DNA from: a virus
Taxonomy: Duplodnaviria > Caudoviricetes
IMG/VR virus record: IMGVR_UViG_3300016666_000287
Coordinates: 1 to 34,438 of that record
DNA: 34,438 nucleotides
Direction: 5' to 3' (one strand)
In this document: piece after piece, positions 179 through 34,228 of the stretch
How positions within the stretch are numbered: the first letter of the stretch is position 1
Layout of the letters: every line of letters begins with the position of its first letter
Notes under the pieces: model-generated
What the model saw: the letters and a program-made list of their open reading frames with translations, nothing else
Database searches by the model: none
Told to the model about the DNA's origin: nothing
Translations under genes and position numbers: made by a program

Positions 179-1378
179 ATGCTCACGGAAAAGCAAATCC
201 GGGCGTTCAAGCCCCGGGAGAATGACTACATCGTTTCTGATGGAAGGAGTACCAGAGGGGAAGGCGTATTGATCCTCAAAGTCAGGCCAAACGGTACGAA
301 GGAGTATTATTTTCAACGTCATGTGGCTGGGAAGAAGAAGTTAACCAAGGTAGGAGTGTGGCCCACGCTGAGCCTTGTTGAGGCTCGTGAGAGCTGTAGA
401 GAGCAGCGTACCAAGGTAATAGCAGGTGGTACGTTTAATGACCTTCTTGATGCTTATGTGTCCAAGCTTACTGGTGAGAATGCTGCATCGACAGACGATG
501 TACAGTGGTCATTCAAGCGGTACGTGACCGAACCATTTCCAAATTTTGCAATACTTCCAGCGTGCGCAATCGGCCCTGGAGAAATTCGTGACATCATCAC
601 TCGGATGATTGAGCGTGGAATAACGACCTACTGCAATCGCGTAAGGTCCCGTTTGCATGCTGCATTTCAAATGGGGCTCGAACAAGAGTTCAACCCTCGA
701 AATTATCATCAGGGCGGTCTGAAGTTCGGCCTGCAAAACAACCCAGTGGCCAGCATACCGGTTCAGGATGATTGGGAGCGCCCAGGTGATCGAACACTTA
801 CGGTTGAGGAGTTGGCAACGCTTTGGCAGCTTCTACCTGAGAAGCTGTCGTTGACTACTGCTGTATTGCTTCAGTTCTTGATTGCTTCTGGTGGCCAGCG
901 TCCTGAACAGCTCCTGGCTGTGGAGCGGCAGCAGTATTACAAGGACCATCTGCTCATTCGAAACAAGAAGGGGCGGGACGGAGAAAGAGCCGCGCATGCG
1001 GTACCGTACAATAAGCTCATGCGCCAAAGCCTACACACGATGTCCGAGATCAGCAGTACAAGCGTCTATCCCTTTGAGGGGAAGAACGAAGGAAAAAGCC
1101 TGCATGCCAATTCGCTATCGCGTGCAGTCACAAAGCTCTATGGGCGCCACGCTGAGAAATTTGAAGAGCCATTCACGCTTCGAGATCTTCGTCGAACCTG
1201 CAAAACATTGATGGGGGTAGCTGGCATTTCAAAAGAGTTGCGTGACCGGATTCAGGGTCATGCATTTAGTGATGTTTCGTCCAAACACTACGACCGCTAT
1301 GACTATTTTAAAGAAAAGAAAAGCGGTCTTGCACGATGGTCGACGTGGCTAGAAAAAAATGCTATCAAAAGGCCATGA
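179..1378 (+). CDS. int: Tyrosine recombinase / P4-like phage integrase with N-terminal arm-binding domain
   Basis: N-terminus MLTEKQIRAFKP..DG....L.L.V.P.G.K; catalytic motifs GGQRPEQL, RDLRRT, QGH, KHYDRY; adjacent to att. ATG 179 is preferred over GTG 122 of the ORF track. Confidence 0.95.
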   Translation: MLTEKQIRAFKPRENDYIVSDGRSTRGEGVLILKVRPNGTKEYYFQRHVAGKKKLTKVGVWPTLSLVEARESCREQRTKVIAGGTFNDLLDAYVSKLTGENAASTDDVQWSFKRYVTEPFPNFAILPACAIGPGEIRDIITRMIERGITTYCNRVRSRLHAAFQMGLEQEFNPRNYHQGGLKFGLQNNPVASIPVQDDWERPGDRTLTVEELATLWQLLPEKLSLTTAVLLQFLIASGGQRPEQLLAVERQQYYKDHLLIRNKKGRDGERAAHAVPYNKLMRQSLHTMSEISSTSVYPFEGKNEGKSLHANSLSRAVTKLYGRHAEKFEEPFTLRDLRRTCKTLMGVAGISKELRDRIQGHAFSDVSSKHYDRYDYFKEKKSGLARWSTWLEKNAIKRP

Positions 1379-1412
1379 ATGTCAGTTTGACCTTCACATT
1401 GAGGAATGGACT

Positions 1413-1898
1413 ATGCCAGCAATGACCGATCCAATGGATGGTTTGAAAAGCTTTCAGAAGCAGGTAAAAATTGTCGGAATAAAGTTATCGAAAGGCGAGG
1501 TGCATCCGGATGTTTCCGTACACCTCGATTACCCTAATGGAGTAGCACGGTTGAGCTACGCATTAATTGATAATGGTCGTGTACGAGCCTTTGTTACCTA
1601 TATCCCGGGCGAGCCATACAATGGCCTGCCATGTTTTTCTATTGGGTATGCTGTCCCTGAGAAGTTCAGAAATCAGGGGCTTGGGGCAGAGATTATTGAG
1701 AAAAGTATCGACGAGCTTAAAAACGGTTATTCCCGTAATGGGATCAGTGAATTCTATGTTGAAGCAGTTGTTGCAGAATCCAACGTACCATCACAAAAGC
1801 TAGCGGAAAAAGCCATCTCGCCAACTGTCGATCGCACGGGCCATGATAGTTACTCTGGTGAGCCGGCATTAACGTATATGCGGTACGTTGAGGCTTAA
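1413..1898 (+). CDS. GNAT-family N-acetyltransferase (cargo gene)
   Basis: Acetyl-CoA motif A IGYAVPEKFRNQGLG and motif B V.ESNVPSQKLAEK; GAGGA upstream of ATG 1413; visibly AT-richer than the structural genes. Confidence 0.8.
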   Translation: MPAMTDPMDGLKSFQKQVKIVGIKLSKGEVHPDVSVHLDYPNGVARLSYALIDNGRVRAFVTYIPGEPYNGLPCFSIGYAVPEKFRNQGLGAEIIEKSIDELKNGYSRNGISEFYVEAVVAESNVPSQKLAEKAISPTVDRTGHDSYSGEPALTYMRYVEA

Positions 1899-30348: not shown

Positions 30349-31310
30349 AACGCGCCGTAGAACGTCAATTCCCCGAGCTGAGCGGCGGCTACCACCTGCC
30401 CAGATTCGCCCTAGTGCAAGGTGTGGCCGATGCCCCGGCCCAGTCCGGCATCTGCGACAACTTCCGGCCCCGGTACGCGGTTGACCTGCAGGTACTGGCC
30501 GAAGATGGCGAACCCGACCCCAACCTGCCGATTCTGGCCGGTGTACCGCTGCCAGTGTCCGTGGGCGGTGATGAGATGGGCTTTTTCGGCTTCCCGGGGG
30601 AAGGCACCACGGTGGTGGTCAACTTCGCCTATGGCATGCCCAGCAAGCCCTTTATCCAGACCATACTGCCCCACGGCCTGAGCCTGCCCAAGGTGCCCAA
30701 AGGGGATCAAGTCTGGCAGCACAGCGAAACCGCCCAACAGCGCGTGGACGCCGACGGCAACTGGTCGCGGCAGACTGATGGCCGCATACAGGACTTCTCA
30801 GCTGATCGCGAAGTCCAAGCCCTGGACAACCAGGAGCACTATCAAAGCCACAGCCAAACCGTGGACGACCATTCAAAAGAGACGGTCGGCGGCGTAAAAA
30901 CACTCGAAGCGATGGGTGCCATGAAACTGCTGTCAGGCGGTTCGATGAGCGTGGCGGCTGTGGATGACTTGCACCAGGCCACGGGGCGCGACCTGAATTT
31001 GGTGGTTGGTGATAAGTACAACGCCACCGTGGGTGGCGATATGCAGGAGCGGATCGAGGGCCTGCGCAAGAGCGTGGCGGGGGAGGGGCAGCGGTTGGTC
31101 GCGCCGAAAAACTGGATTGGCTCTGAAAGCGTGAACCTGTTTCAGGTGGTGTGTGATTTGCTCGACCTAGTGCAGGAGATGAACACGCAACTGGCGGGGC
31201 ATACGCATTTGCCTGGGCCGACGCCGAGTCCTACAGATGCAGCTGCATTTATAGCCAAAGCAGCAATTGGCAAGCAACTTTCGGTTAAGACGAAAGCAAT
31301 AAACTTTTGA
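30333..31310 (+). CDS. Baseplate central spike protein (gpV/gp5-like)
   Basis: OB-fold-like N-terminus (P.EGT.VVV.FAYG.P..P), beta-helix-like repeats (VGGD..E.I.G) and C-terminal HTH metal-binding tip (LAGHTH). Confidence 0.7.
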   Translation: MEEAIKRAVERQFPELSGGYHLPRFALVQGVADAPAQSGICDNFRPRYAVDLQVLAEDGEPDPNLPILAGVPLPVSVGGDEMGFFGFPGEGTTVVVNFAYGMPSKPFIQTILPHGLSLPKVPKGDQVWQHSETAQQRVDADGNWSRQTDGRIQDFSADREVQALDNQEHYQSHSQTVDDHSKETVGGVKTLEAMGAMKLLSGGSMSVAAVDDLHQATGRDLNLVVGDKYNATVGGDMQERIEGLRKSVAGEGQRLVAPKNWIGSESVNLFQVVCDLLDLVQEMNTQLAGHTHLPGPTPSPTDAAAFIAKAAIGKQLSVKTKAINF

Positions 31311-31416
31311 GCTTTTCTATATTCGTCGACGAGCACGCGCTCTATAAAACTTGCTTTGGTATGGTCTCCCCGCAAGTAACTTAACTCTATTAGTTAACAT
31401 TGCTCTCGAGCCAACT

Positions 31417-31436
31417 ACCGTCTATCGGTTTTTTTT
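31417..31436 (+). terminator. Short-stem intrinsic terminator downstream of the late operon
   Basis: ACCG-TCTAT-CGGT followed by a T run; the stem is weak. Confidence 0.4.
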
Positions 31437-31550
31437 GAGGGCAGCATGAAAAAACGAGCCCGAAGGTCGTATTGGTAAAATACGAACGGCAATAGGGAAA
31501 CCCTGAATTTTACTAGCGAAAACGCGAACGCCTGATCGTTTTCAGGCGGC

Positions 31551-31584
31551 AAGAACGCCGAAGCCCGCACTGGGCGGGCTTCGG
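31551..31584 (-). terminator. Intrinsic terminator-like hairpin
   Basis: CCGAAGCCCGC-N5-GCGGGCTTCGG perfect 11-bp stem (31558-31584) with CGTTCTT tail on the - strand. Confidence 0.7.
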
Positions 31585-31671
31585 GTGTATGCTTTTAGCA
31601 GGATCCCTGACGGAAAACCTGTGATAGCATCTGGCTCAATCACTCGAACCATAGATCTTTGGAACTCGACA
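31551..31671 (-). ncRNA. Predicted ~120-nt antisense sRNA (candidate antitoxin/regulator)
   Basis: - strand promoter TTGACG (31701-31706), 17-bp spacer, TAGCCT (31678-31683); no ORF seen; ends in an 11-bp hairpin plus CGTTCTT. Ends are estimated. Confidence 0.5.
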
Positions 31672-31893
31672 CTTCAAAGGCTATGGCTAACTGATCACCC
31701 CGTCAAGCCCGAATAGGTGCTTGCGGGTGAAACACTGCAAATGCTGGGTTGTTATTCATATATGTAATGCTTCCCAGATTAATTAGTTAACCAAACTGGC
31801 TAACTAATTAGCGTGTACGGTTAGATCAAGTGAGAGGTGCTGCTAACGCTCATGTCAGTGTGCAGCTTTCTCTAACCTTTGGAGTAGTAACCA

Positions 31894-31989
31894 ATGTTGA
31901 ATTACATTGCTCGCTTCCTGCCGGAGGAGTTGATCAGGTTCTTGCAAGTAACCTATTGGCTGATCCGTCTGTACAAGCTTTTTTTCTAA
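31894..31989 (+). CDS. Unannotated 31-aa amphipathic peptide MLNYIARFLPEELIRFLQVTYWLIRLYKLFF (type I toxin-like)
   Basis: GGAG SD at 31881-31884, ATG 31894, TAA 31987-31989, strong terminator 14 bp later; below the ORF-track size cut-off. Confidence 0.65.
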   Translation: MLNYIARFLPEELIRFLQVTYWLIRLYKLFF

Positions 31990-32003
31990 GCTTGTCGTCA
32001 AAT

Positions 32004-32030
32004 AAAACAGGGGCTTCGGCCCCTGTTTTT
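32004..32030 (+). terminator. Strong intrinsic terminator (potentially bidirectional)
   Basis: AAAACAGGGGC-TTCG-GCCCCTGTTTTT; C(UUCG)G tetraloop on the + strand. Confidence 0.9.
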
Positions 32031-32228
32031 GTTTCGCACGCTGAAGATATCTCCACCGTGCCTCTCTTGATTTTCTGACGCGTGGGTAAGCCTCTTGATC
32101 CGATAGGTCGGTATTCGCCCGTCGCTACGATGCTGCACCTGTTGCAGGCGTGCTCACTCCACGCAAAAGTGACACGGTAAGAAGAAAGTCAGGCAAAAAC
32201 GTTTCGCAGCATAAAAATATCGGCTCAC

Positions 32229-32253
32229 AAAAAAGCCCGCATTTGCGGGCTTT
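32229..32253 (-). terminator. Intrinsic terminator of the DUF2335-type cassette
   Basis: AAAAAAGCCCGC-ATTT-GCGGGCTTT, 10 bp after the stop at 32264. Confidence 0.88.
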
Positions 32254-32263
32254 AGGGACGCGT

Positions 32264-32788
32264 CTACTTCTTTTTACCGGTGGGTTTTGTTACAGCCCCT
32301 TCGCTCGGTGTGCGTTTCCGTCGTCCAGTGATGAATGCTGCGATGATGCCGCCGAAGCCAACGGTTCCGATAGCGCTAGCAGCTATCTCATGGCCTTGAA
32401 GAGCCAAGTACACCACGGATGCAATTACTGCTAACGAAATCATCAGAGCGAACAGCTGGCCCATCAATATTTCGACTATATACCAAGTCGATAGTTTTTC
32501 ATCGATGGCTATCGATCGGCTTTCTATACCCTGTCGATGCGCTGTCTGGCTGGTCGTCCATTGGACAATCTCCTGGGCCAAACCAGGGACTACAGAGTCA
32601 TATTCTCTGAGTAGTGATGGAGGAGGCAGGGGGCCTTGAAAGGCCGTGGTGACCATTCCGGTCTGCTTCCTCTCGCGTTCAATCGTGCCGGTGCGAGGCT
32701 CTACGCGAGCATCAGGCTTGTTGGGTGTCACGTTCTTTGGCTTCTGCGACACGCTGTTTGCCTTGTTCTGCTGCTTTATAGAAGTCAT
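32264..32788 (-). CDS. DUF2335-like predicted membrane protein
   Basis: FQGPLPPPSLLREYD.VVPG.A..I......Q.AHR signature, two C-terminal TM segments and basic tail. Start is uncertain (ATG 32788 or GTG 32752). Confidence 0.8.
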   Translation of the reverse strand: MTSIKQQNKANSVSQKPKNVTPNKPDARVEPRTGTIERERKQTGMVTTAFQGPLPPPSLLREYDSVVPGLAQEIVQWTTSQTAHRQGIESRSIAIDEKLSTWYIVEILMGQLFALMISLAVIASVVYLALQGHEIAASAIGTVGFGGIIAAFITGRRKRTPSEGAVTKPTGKKK

Positions 32789-32939
32789 GACCGATCGCCT
32801 GCACATCTTCTTGCAGCGCTTCAAAGTCAGTTCGTGCTAACTCAGATCCGTGACCACGATAGTGGCTGTAGCCTTGTGCCGGGCAAAGCACCAAAACGGA
32901 CCCGATGCCTGAGAGCAAATTCCTGAGCATACGATTCAC
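32712..32939 (-). CDS. Small hypothetical partner of the DUF2335-like gene (75 aa)
   Basis: LLSGIGSVL.L.P ... D.EALQED.QAIG.D pattern; overlaps the next gene; sits just after a promoter. Start is GTG 32939 or the nearby ATG. Confidence 0.7.
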   Translation of the reverse strand: MNRMLRNLLSGIGSVLVLCPAQGYSHYRGHGSELARTDFEALQEDVQAIGHDFYKAAEQGKQRVAEAKERDTQQA

Positions 32940-32974
32940 ATTCTTAGTCCAATGTCAGTAAAAACGGCGCGCAC

Positions 32975-33003
32975 ATTCTACATAGGTGTCTATATATGCG
33001 CAA
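32975..33003 (-). promoter_or_regulatory. sigma70 promoter of the two-gene moron
   Basis: - strand TTGCGC (32998-33003), 17-bp spacer, TAGAAT (32975-32980), with AT-rich DNA upstream. Confidence 0.65.
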
Positions 33004-33118
33004 TAAATAAGACCTCAATCAATCAATTTCGTTCAGTTTATTTACGAATTGGTTGACAGCTGCCTTAAGTCAAGAATGGCATGCTGGCTGAGGCCTGTAC
33101 AGTGTGTTTTTGAACATA

Positions 33119-33134
33119 CTGTAAATATATACAG
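33119..33134. promoter_or_regulatory. LexA (SOS) box
   Basis: CTGTAAATATATACAG = CTG-N10-CAG with AT-rich spacer, preceded by TA. Confidence 0.85.
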
Positions 33135-33244
33135 CTTTTTCCTTCTTGGCTCCTTTACCTACGTTGCCGCTCGAGATCTAAACAAGATGCAGCATAGCTG
33201 CAGCTTGGGAAGTCAGGCATGAAATTAAAAAACTGCGGGAAAAA

Positions 33245-33726: not shown

Positions 33727-34015
33727 GGGGAAAGGGTAATTTGGTAATTTTTTACAGGGAGTGGTCTGCAGCTCTTATGGGGCGGGACTTTGAGCGATTA
33801 CCGGTGACGGTAATTAGGGGTAATTAGAAAGGTAATTTTTTACTAAGTGCCTGATTTGTAAGGGTTTTATTCGGGTTGGTTATTACCATGGTCAAAGGTA
33901 ATAATCTTACTATTCAATTACCCTAAAATTACCCTTGCCAAAGACTTTCAAGCCATTGATTTTAAAGGCTTTCAGGCAGATTAAGAAATTCAATTACCAA
34001 AATTACCTTTTCCCC
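33727..34015. repeat. Iteron-rich symmetric region, putative replication origin
   Basis: Six GGTAAT and six ATTACC copies, ~24-bp imperfect terminal inverted repeats and two IHF-consensus-like sites. Confidence 0.7.
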
Positions 34016-34154: not shown

Positions 34155-34228
34155 TGGAGCGGGTGGCGGGAATCGAACCCGCGTGATCAGCTTGGGAAGC
34201 TGGAGTAATACCATTATACGACACCCGC
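34155..34228 (-). tRNA. tRNA-Gly (anticodon CCC), integration target
   Basis: 74 nt GCGGGTG...CAGC-TTCCCAA-GCTG...GGTTCGATTCC...CACCCGC-T-CCA; acceptor stem, T-loop and encoded CCA are all present. Confidence 0.96.
34175..34203. repeat. att core copy inside tRNA-Gly
   Basis: Identical to positions 1-29. Confidence 0.95.

Follow-up and report, generated by a model that had tools for sequence, protein, structure and literature searches.

At the right-hand end of a P2-family prophage we found an unannotated cassette that is probably a type I toxin-antitoxin module, in which an antisense RNA would silence a 31-aa peptide through a double helix swap about a hinge stem that stays fixed in the mRNA leader. 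The DNA analysed (34,438 nt, hereafter the window) is the whole prophage, with an integrase-like gene (122-1378), genes for a PBSX-type portal, a P2 major capsid and a tape measure, a baseplate-spike-like gene ending at 31310, and a tRNA (34158-34228) that was the only Rfam match at gathering level over the window. The named genomes with related prophages are Pseudomonas. The cassette is part of the cargo to the right of the tail genes, at the prophage end, and its parts follow a fixed order: antisense terminator, two head-to-head promoters (~34-nt overlap), leader, peptide and terminator. In the window these elements are:

31550-31671, minus strand: predicted antisense RNA, ~121 nt
31558-31584, minus strand: predicted antisense terminator, a GC-rich hairpin with a U-rich tail
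31622-31630, plus strand: predicted extended -10 box of the mRNA (TG-A-TAGCAT), start at ~31637
31640-31647, plus strand: E1, mRNA 5' end, long-range pairing with E4 (7 bp in the window, weaker than in most homologues)
31649-31663, plus strand: arm C (anti-anti-SD) of hairpin C:A
31664-31672, plus strand: loop of this hairpin with the YUNR motif CUCG, likely the first contact for the antisense 5' tail
31671-31686, plus strand: segment A (anti-SD), which pairs with C or the RBS and includes the antisense -10 box
31678-31706, minus strand: predicted antisense promoter, -35 TTGACG (31706-31701), 17 nt, -10 TAGCCT (31683-31678)
31687-31824, plus strand: variable middle domain, closed in both folds by a hinge stem (31687-93:31818-24)
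31826-31837, plus strand: E4, which pairs with E1, or with E5 as the base of an RBS-proximal hairpin
31867-31872, plus strand: E5, which supplies the 3' strand of that hairpin base
31873-31885, plus strand: segment B, with the SD GGAG at 31881-84
31894-31989, plus strand: unannotated 31-aa ORF, predicted cationic amphipathic helix, family motif R[FY]xPEELIRxLQxxYWxxRL
32004-32029, plus strand: intrinsic mRNA terminator

A preliminary description of this DNA had proposed that 31671-31683, within segment A, pairs either with B over the SD or with 31649-31663, and that an antisense RNA decides between the two. All three segments were found at these positions and both pairings exist: A matches B at 12 of 13 positions (11 Watson-Crick pairs and one G-U, duplex -12.9 kcal/mol), although predicted folds give a helix of 10 bp (31671-80:31876-85) rather than 13, and A forms with 31649-31663 a 14-bp hairpin of -14.8 kcal/mol. 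These pairings are not due to chance. Only two positions in the 34-kb window reach 12 of 13, the RBS being the better one, and no more than 3 of 3000 dinucleotide shuffles of the leader match the RBS 13-mer equally well. The free RNA of the window prefers neither fold, which is what could be said for incidental, functionless pairings; that reading is nonetheless scarcely credible in the face of the shuffles and of family-wide conservation and covariation, the latter largely refuting it.

We infer both promoters from conservation, a scan with the standard sigma-70 consensus having listed neither. In most of 44 homologues a TGnTAnnnT-type box is found 39-45 nt upstream of the antisense -10, and in 43 of the 44 TTGAC stands as the antisense -35 with a spacer of 17 nt, a partly circular count since the promoter anchor used this motif. 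When 15 loci were aligned without the anchor, GTCAA and TA were invariant in all 15, spaced like a minus-strand -35/-10, with a plus-strand extended -10 ~53 nt upstream. The antisense terminator covaries, two-sided changes being present at seven of its nine consensus pairs (32 aligned loci). Conservation of promoter and terminator, together with fold and cofold, points to an antisense RNA whose overlap with the mRNA is predicted to be limited to the first ~34 nt of the latter (31637-31671), ending some 220 nt short of the start codon. The antisense RNA is predicted to have a single-stranded 5' tail of 11-12 nt, complementary to the C:A loop. That the antisense 5' end complements arm C, as had been pointed out, is true but automatic for a cis-antisense RNA; with a predicted start at ~31670-71, the 5' tail meets the loop (31664-70) first and arm C afterwards. 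A YUNR motif is found in the C:A loop of 30/44 homologues versus 15 expected from shuffles, with relatedness ignored. Among the eight RNA runs listed, all consisting of assembled contigs that carry neither strand nor ends, metatranscriptome X1, which was found with the window sequence itself, contained two 151-nt contigs identical to 31779-32057; this cover, extending 28 nt beyond the mRNA terminator and accompanied elsewhere in 20 kb by the tRNA only, is a weak hint at transcription over 31779-32057.

The first two scans of Pseudomonas prophages and genomes yielded 57 distinct cassettes out of 72 matches. Before dereplication to 44, five of 61 cassettes without the promoter anchor were removed, as was a degenerate copy in a Pseudomonas MAG (L132:2690-3130, plus strand) with altered N- and C-terminus and altered promoter spacing; from the held-out set, six without the anchor were removed and 13 cassettes used. 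Alignment A3 excludes six of the 44 with long insertions, and the statistics exclude plasmid copies. Helix conservation was assessed by comparing cognate with non-cognate duplex energies, with coding-region controls, in permutation tests that ignore relatedness; the tree is poorly resolved.

The strongest conserved long-range helix is E1:E4, formed by the first ~10 nt of the mRNA and a segment ~60 nt before the start codon. The preliminary description had overlooked both this helix and its competitor, the E4:E5 hairpin, which ends ~21 nt before the start, and its switch model was to that extent incomplete. Over 44 cassettes, z was -10.2 for E1:E4, -5.0 for E4:E5, -5.0 for C:A and -1.35 for A:B (p 0.09), with null controls; in the 13 held-out cassettes it was -5.5 for E1:E4, -4.7 for C:A and -2.9 for A:B (p 0.003), one control coming to p 0.049. 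Pooling the 57 dereplicated cassettes gave -12.2, -7.2 and -2.8 (p 0.004), respectively, again with null coding-region controls. Across 38 aligned leaders, E1:E4 showed two-sided changes at seven of eight pairs, with several different compensated cores; none of 500 shuffles reached its covariation score and slid controls scored lower, while the C:A score was reached by 2 of 500. The hinge stem is predicted to bring the mRNA 5' end beside the RBS region.

A:B is the weakest helix, real but looser and with a shifting register. It showed no column-wise covariation in the 38 leaders (165 of 500 shuffles equalled it, and a +1 slide scored as well), its p value was 0.14 in an early set of 43 cassettes and 0.09 in one of 44, and A paired better than with shuffled B, at p up to 0.05, in 17/57 cassettes; in a plasmid copy, a 10-bp A:B match stops 4 nt before the SD. 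The window holds one of the best examples of A:B and one of the weaker examples of E1:E4 (-6.8 kcal/mol, 0.9 bp in the free ensemble), and there E1:E4 and E4:E5 overlap by only 2 nt. Since A contains the antisense -10 box TAGCCT, its conservation is not independent evidence for A:B, and the mutational test proposed earlier for this segment would be confounded at 31678-83 by the same box. The weakness of A:B across the family, the promoter constraint on A and the fixed spacing of the overlapping promoters would fit repression mainly by RNase III decay of the 5' duplex and/or by head-to-head promoter interference, with A:B secondary or lineage-specific. We consider this quite improbable, as decay or interference alone would need neither the strongly covarying swap between E1:E4 and E4:E5 nor the cognate A:B signal.

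Consistently with the proposed antisense-driven closing, folds of the window's mRNA computed from 31637 were dominated by A:B once 31637-31670 had been blocked or removed, and cofolding with the predicted antisense RNA gave a duplex of 34 bp, with A:B lying across the SD as a helix of 10 bp. Blocking 31637-31670 raised A:B pairing in the window from 4.4 to 10.1 bp and the cost of opening the SD from 3.4 to 8.7 kcal/mol. The direction of this effect was also borne out in silico among the homologues, although the SD itself was covered in under half of them: with the 5' 34 nt blocked, released A gained RBS-proximal pairing in 35/44 and pairing with SD bases in only 19/44, and the SD-opening cost went up in 22/44 and down in 9/44. 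Released A paired mainly at -20..0 (0.25 and 0.18 per nt, versus at most 0.03 elsewhere in the leader), and formed 5.9 bp with native B versus 3.7 bp with a shuffled B linker (p 0.001). With E1:E4 forced, opening -20..+2 cost 5.9 kcal/mol; removing E1 brought this to 8.3 and removing both E1 and C to 9.5, the last value exceeding the first in 35/44 homologues and falling below it in 2/44; the opening cost of the SD only barely separated the states (22 versus 14 of 44, p 0.047). Taken together, the opening costs over -20..+2 and the pairing of released A favour, in these models, a polarity in which the mRNA with an intact, paired 5' end would be ON and the antisense-bound or cleaved mRNA OFF. 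The exposed RBS that had been envisaged for the ON state is less clear-cut, as the free RNA of the window lies 2-3 kcal/mol from both folds and the full-length mRNA also pairs the SD with the coding region. With native coding regions the opening cost was 8.5 versus 7.6 with synonymous shuffles (27/44, p 0.009), a weak hint from modelling at a family-wide coding-region lock on the SD.

One modelled result fits the opposite polarity: forcing E1:E4 increased pairing of E5 with the SD (1.3 versus 0.4 nt; up in 23/44, down in 1/44). It would be expected from a two-layer control of the dinQ type, in which E1:E4 locks the primary transcript by releasing E5 to pair over the SD, cleavage between E1 and C yields the active mRNA, and the antisense RNA silences this form through C and A:B. 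The 1:2 / 2:3 / 3:4 logic of such a system is described for dinQ (PMC5066626), and it would provide the missing first lock. Even so, we regard two-layer control as unlikely, since the SD-opening cost is equal in forced and trimmed forms (p 0.75), trimming makes the -20..+2 footprint harder to open in 37/44 homologues, and E5:SD pairing shows no cognate specificity (p 0.10). For the toxin-antitoxin reading with ON as the default state, it is unfavourable that the mRNA would be devoid of the usual first lock of type I systems.

Under the toxin-antitoxin reading with a double helix swap, the peptide is preceded by a leader of ~257 nt with two predicted folds, and E1 would pair with E4 in the ON state and so loosen the RBS-adjacent hairpin, while arm C would keep segment A in a local hairpin, leaving the ribosome footprint most open. 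To switch OFF, the single-stranded 5' tail of the antisense RNA would enter at the YUNR loop and capture E1 and C over ~34 bp; E4 would return to E5, and the freed A would pair with segment B, covering the whole SD in the window copy. The hinge stem would stay in both folds. A cut of the duplex by RNase III, suggested by dinQ and hok, would leave a 5'-truncated mRNA stuck in the OFF fold. Should the antisense RNA decay faster than the mRNA after loss of the element or a block of transcription, peptide would be made, much as the preliminary description had envisaged for host shut-off or prophage loss; this would likely serve maintenance of a prophage, plasmid or ICE and possibly abortive infection too. 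A bolder version is conceivable but rather doubtful: a new type I family restricted to Pseudomonas, with an mRNA that is active from its synthesis on and controlled solely by the antisense-driven double helix swap across a 130-nt hinge, as a processing-free dead-man switch that fires when antisense synthesis stops, with abortive infection or addiction exerted via a specific protein target and not a generic pore.

By analogy, the cassette most likely works like timP/TimR and dinQ/AgrB. The timP mRNA is switched without processing, and its 5' truncation abolishes translation (PMC11228461, PMC13000454). As in our model of the cassette, the unprocessed timP mRNA is both the active and the targeted form, translation needs 5' sequence, the RBS is opened by long-range pairing, and the sRNA acts at a distance from the SD by disrupting an activating structure upstream. 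The timP leader differs in its SL1-SL3 pseudoknot and stable SD stem-loop, whereas the cassette helices are nested (only nested folds having been computed); in the cassette, moreover, the RBS would be closed by a freed anti-SD, and the predicted antisense gene lies in cis and head-to-head with the mRNA. No match to the timP/TimR family was obtained in Pfam, NCBIfam or Rfam. With dinQ it shares mutually exclusive helices in a long leader and closure of the SD by refolding, as AgrB does (PMC5066626), rather than by covering; for dinQ/AgrB and for DqlB/AgrB, a plasmid addiction module, RNase III cutting of the duplex is also described (PMC5066626, PMC12365149). The dinQ system differs in its need for 5' processing, its LexA control and an agrB gene that has no overlap with the mRNA, whereas the predicted antisense RNA of the cassette overlaps the mRNA 5' end. 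The two peptides have the letters ELIR in common. Membership of the DinQ family was rejected: the hhalign probability was 5% over 4 columns, and a leader profile missed the dinQ locus at E up to 5.

In hok/Sok and ldr/Rdl, as predicted here, a cis-antisense RNA is encoded in the 5' region of a mobile-element gene (PMC5668327, PMC8594479), and its 5' tail meets a U-turn target loop, the entry point of Sok into hok mRNA (PMC5668327). In those systems, however, the antisense RNA lies wholly inside the mRNA and acts via a leader ORF after 3' processing, while the predicted cassette overlap is only ~34 nt, none of the three leader frames is conserved (they are open in 7, 14 and 13 of the 44 homologues), and the 5' and 3' ends show no covarying pairing. 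A mok-like leader ORF was thus rejected, no conserved open frame or start being found (the 82-aa frame at 31830-32078 of the window included), as was a hok-like 5'-3' fold-back (E1:3' end p 0.43, SD:3' end p 0.66). SymR is likewise encoded opposite the 5' part of its toxin gene, but lies right over the RBS and start codon, and its toxin SymE is a protein of nuclease type with 113 aa (PMC4147584); the cassette overlap at 31637-31671 is far from the SD at 31881. The passage of T1TAdb on locus layouts (PMC8594479) lists no family in which the overlap is confined to the first ~34 nt of the mRNA, and the cassette differs from every arrangement given in that passage.

The ORF diverges in a coding-type manner (mismatch per codon position 0.28/0.13/0.55). 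Homologous peptides are 28-35 aa long, with a net charge of +1 to +4 in 44/44 and a near-invariant E-x3-R-x2-Q-x3-W-x2-R stripe, and are predicted to form a single amphipathic cationic helix (moment ~0.5; in an AlphaFold model of one homologue, one helix at pLDDT 85.7). Hydrophobicity is low: the best 19-residue Kyte-Doolittle mean is 0.87 (range 0.28-1.6), under the usual transmembrane level and not that of a classic transmembrane segment. This speaks against the toxin-antitoxin reading, although type I proteins usually, but not always, have a hydrophobic membrane helix. No family was found for the ORF in Pfam or NCBIfam, the latter being empty even at E up to 10, nor in PHROGs (1/17 members matched, at E 0.07), and no PDB chain matched; none of these searches revealed homology to known toxins. 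With phmmer, three relatives, all unnamed or hypothetical, were found among 1.84 billion representatives.

The low hydrophobicity, the invariant stripe, suggestive of a specific partner, and the lack of toxin homology in family, PDB and profile searches would agree with a real switch in which the antisense RNA doses a non-lethal phage or plasmid effector, acting for example on membrane state, superinfection or a specific host protein, instead of forming a toxin-antitoxin pair with it. We find such an effector rather improbable, because the layout (small cationic amphipathic peptide, long structured leader, cis-antisense RNA and own terminator) and the occurrence on prophages, plasmids and an ICE-like locus are typical of type I modules. 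The nearest Atlas look-alikes of the peptide, DinQ (0.81) and TisB (0.78), point the same way, as a lead only. At 31 aa, with a predicted mRNA of ~393 nt, it falls within the small-protein range of the type I class (20-60 aa, 150-400-nt mRNA), and by analogy the peptide is likely to be a toxin.

Of 80 prophage ends retrieved via the neighbouring tail protein, 72 extended for 1 kb or more downstream, and the cassette was present in 15 of these, about a fifth. Scanning with a degenerate peptide pattern brought up 47 loci in viral sequences, 17 in genomes and 54 in metagenomes, some being chance matches. The peptide profile was positive in 10/401 Pseudomonas genomes and, in 401 order-level and 401 class-level genomes, detected nothing besides the centre genome. 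By tblastn, relatives were found on six conjugative P. syringae-group plasmids, where they are unannotated and adjoin an integrase, with ParA nearby and RelE-type genes in one case. The same tail gene neighbours the cassette in most of 25 genomic or plasmid loci checked; other identified neighbourhoods hold terminase, integrase or ICE-type pilus genes. Annotated phages and plasmids contained no blastn match to the cassette; tblastn against phages gave a single chance match, and two strict DNA patterns 0 and 2 loci, the one examined (L002) being unrelated. Rfam in E-value mode over 10 homologue loci returned eight sub-threshold matches far under the cut-offs and no family.

Several variants were observed in these loci. 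Short-leader copies (~110-125 nt from the antisense -10 to the start: L141, L143, L147, L148, L157, L192 and L193), carried by plasmids, an ICE-like locus and other islands, are without most of the middle domain; compensated E1:E4 pairing is clear in L141, L143, L192 and L193. Two copies lie ~1.8 kb apart on single contigs in three cases (L092/L127, L160/L161 and L212/L213), and the differing loops of the first pair (CTAGACA versus CTCGCA) would allow two insulated antisense specificities. At L146:4897-5748 (plus strand), an ORF of the Pfam Peptidase_C58 family, an effector-type cysteine protease family, lies ~2 kb from the cassette beside an integrase fragment.

Type I modules appear barely described in Pseudomonas, as the word Pseudomonas is absent from the main text of T1TAdb and of Fozo 2010, and passages of a P. 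aeruginosa survey report only hok- and ldr-like homologues. Literature searches listed no description of the peptide family, of which Fozo 2010 Table S8 (>2000 predicted ORFs) and T1TAdb entries may hold a member. Being unannotated and present in related prophage ends and on conjugative plasmids, the cassette may have gone unnoticed as a factor in the stability or defence of related prophages and of P. syringae-group conjugative plasmids. It would also offer many natural compensatory variants for studying how a toxin mRNA is silenced from >200 nt away without processing, the question raised by timP, and a compact antisense-controlled translational switch for Pseudomonas.

Other features of the prophage were noted. 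Just past the cassette (32264-32939, minus strand) lie two backward-facing cargo genes, an ORF of 75 aa and one for a DUF2335 membrane protein of 186 aa, which may form another accessory or defence pair. At the other end, a GNAT acetyltransferase gene (1359-1898, plus strand) overlaps the end of the integrase gene, and a GNAT next to an integrase was seen again at L143:4402-4977. Motifs GGTAAT/ATTACC are repeated at 33730-34010, near the right attachment site and upstream of the tRNA, as a possible protein-binding array or origin element. Finally, a contig of run X4 joins 31208 to 33239 (one contig, with a 32-nt side), representing a related phage devoid of the window's cargo stretch and consistent with a swap-in slot for cargo.
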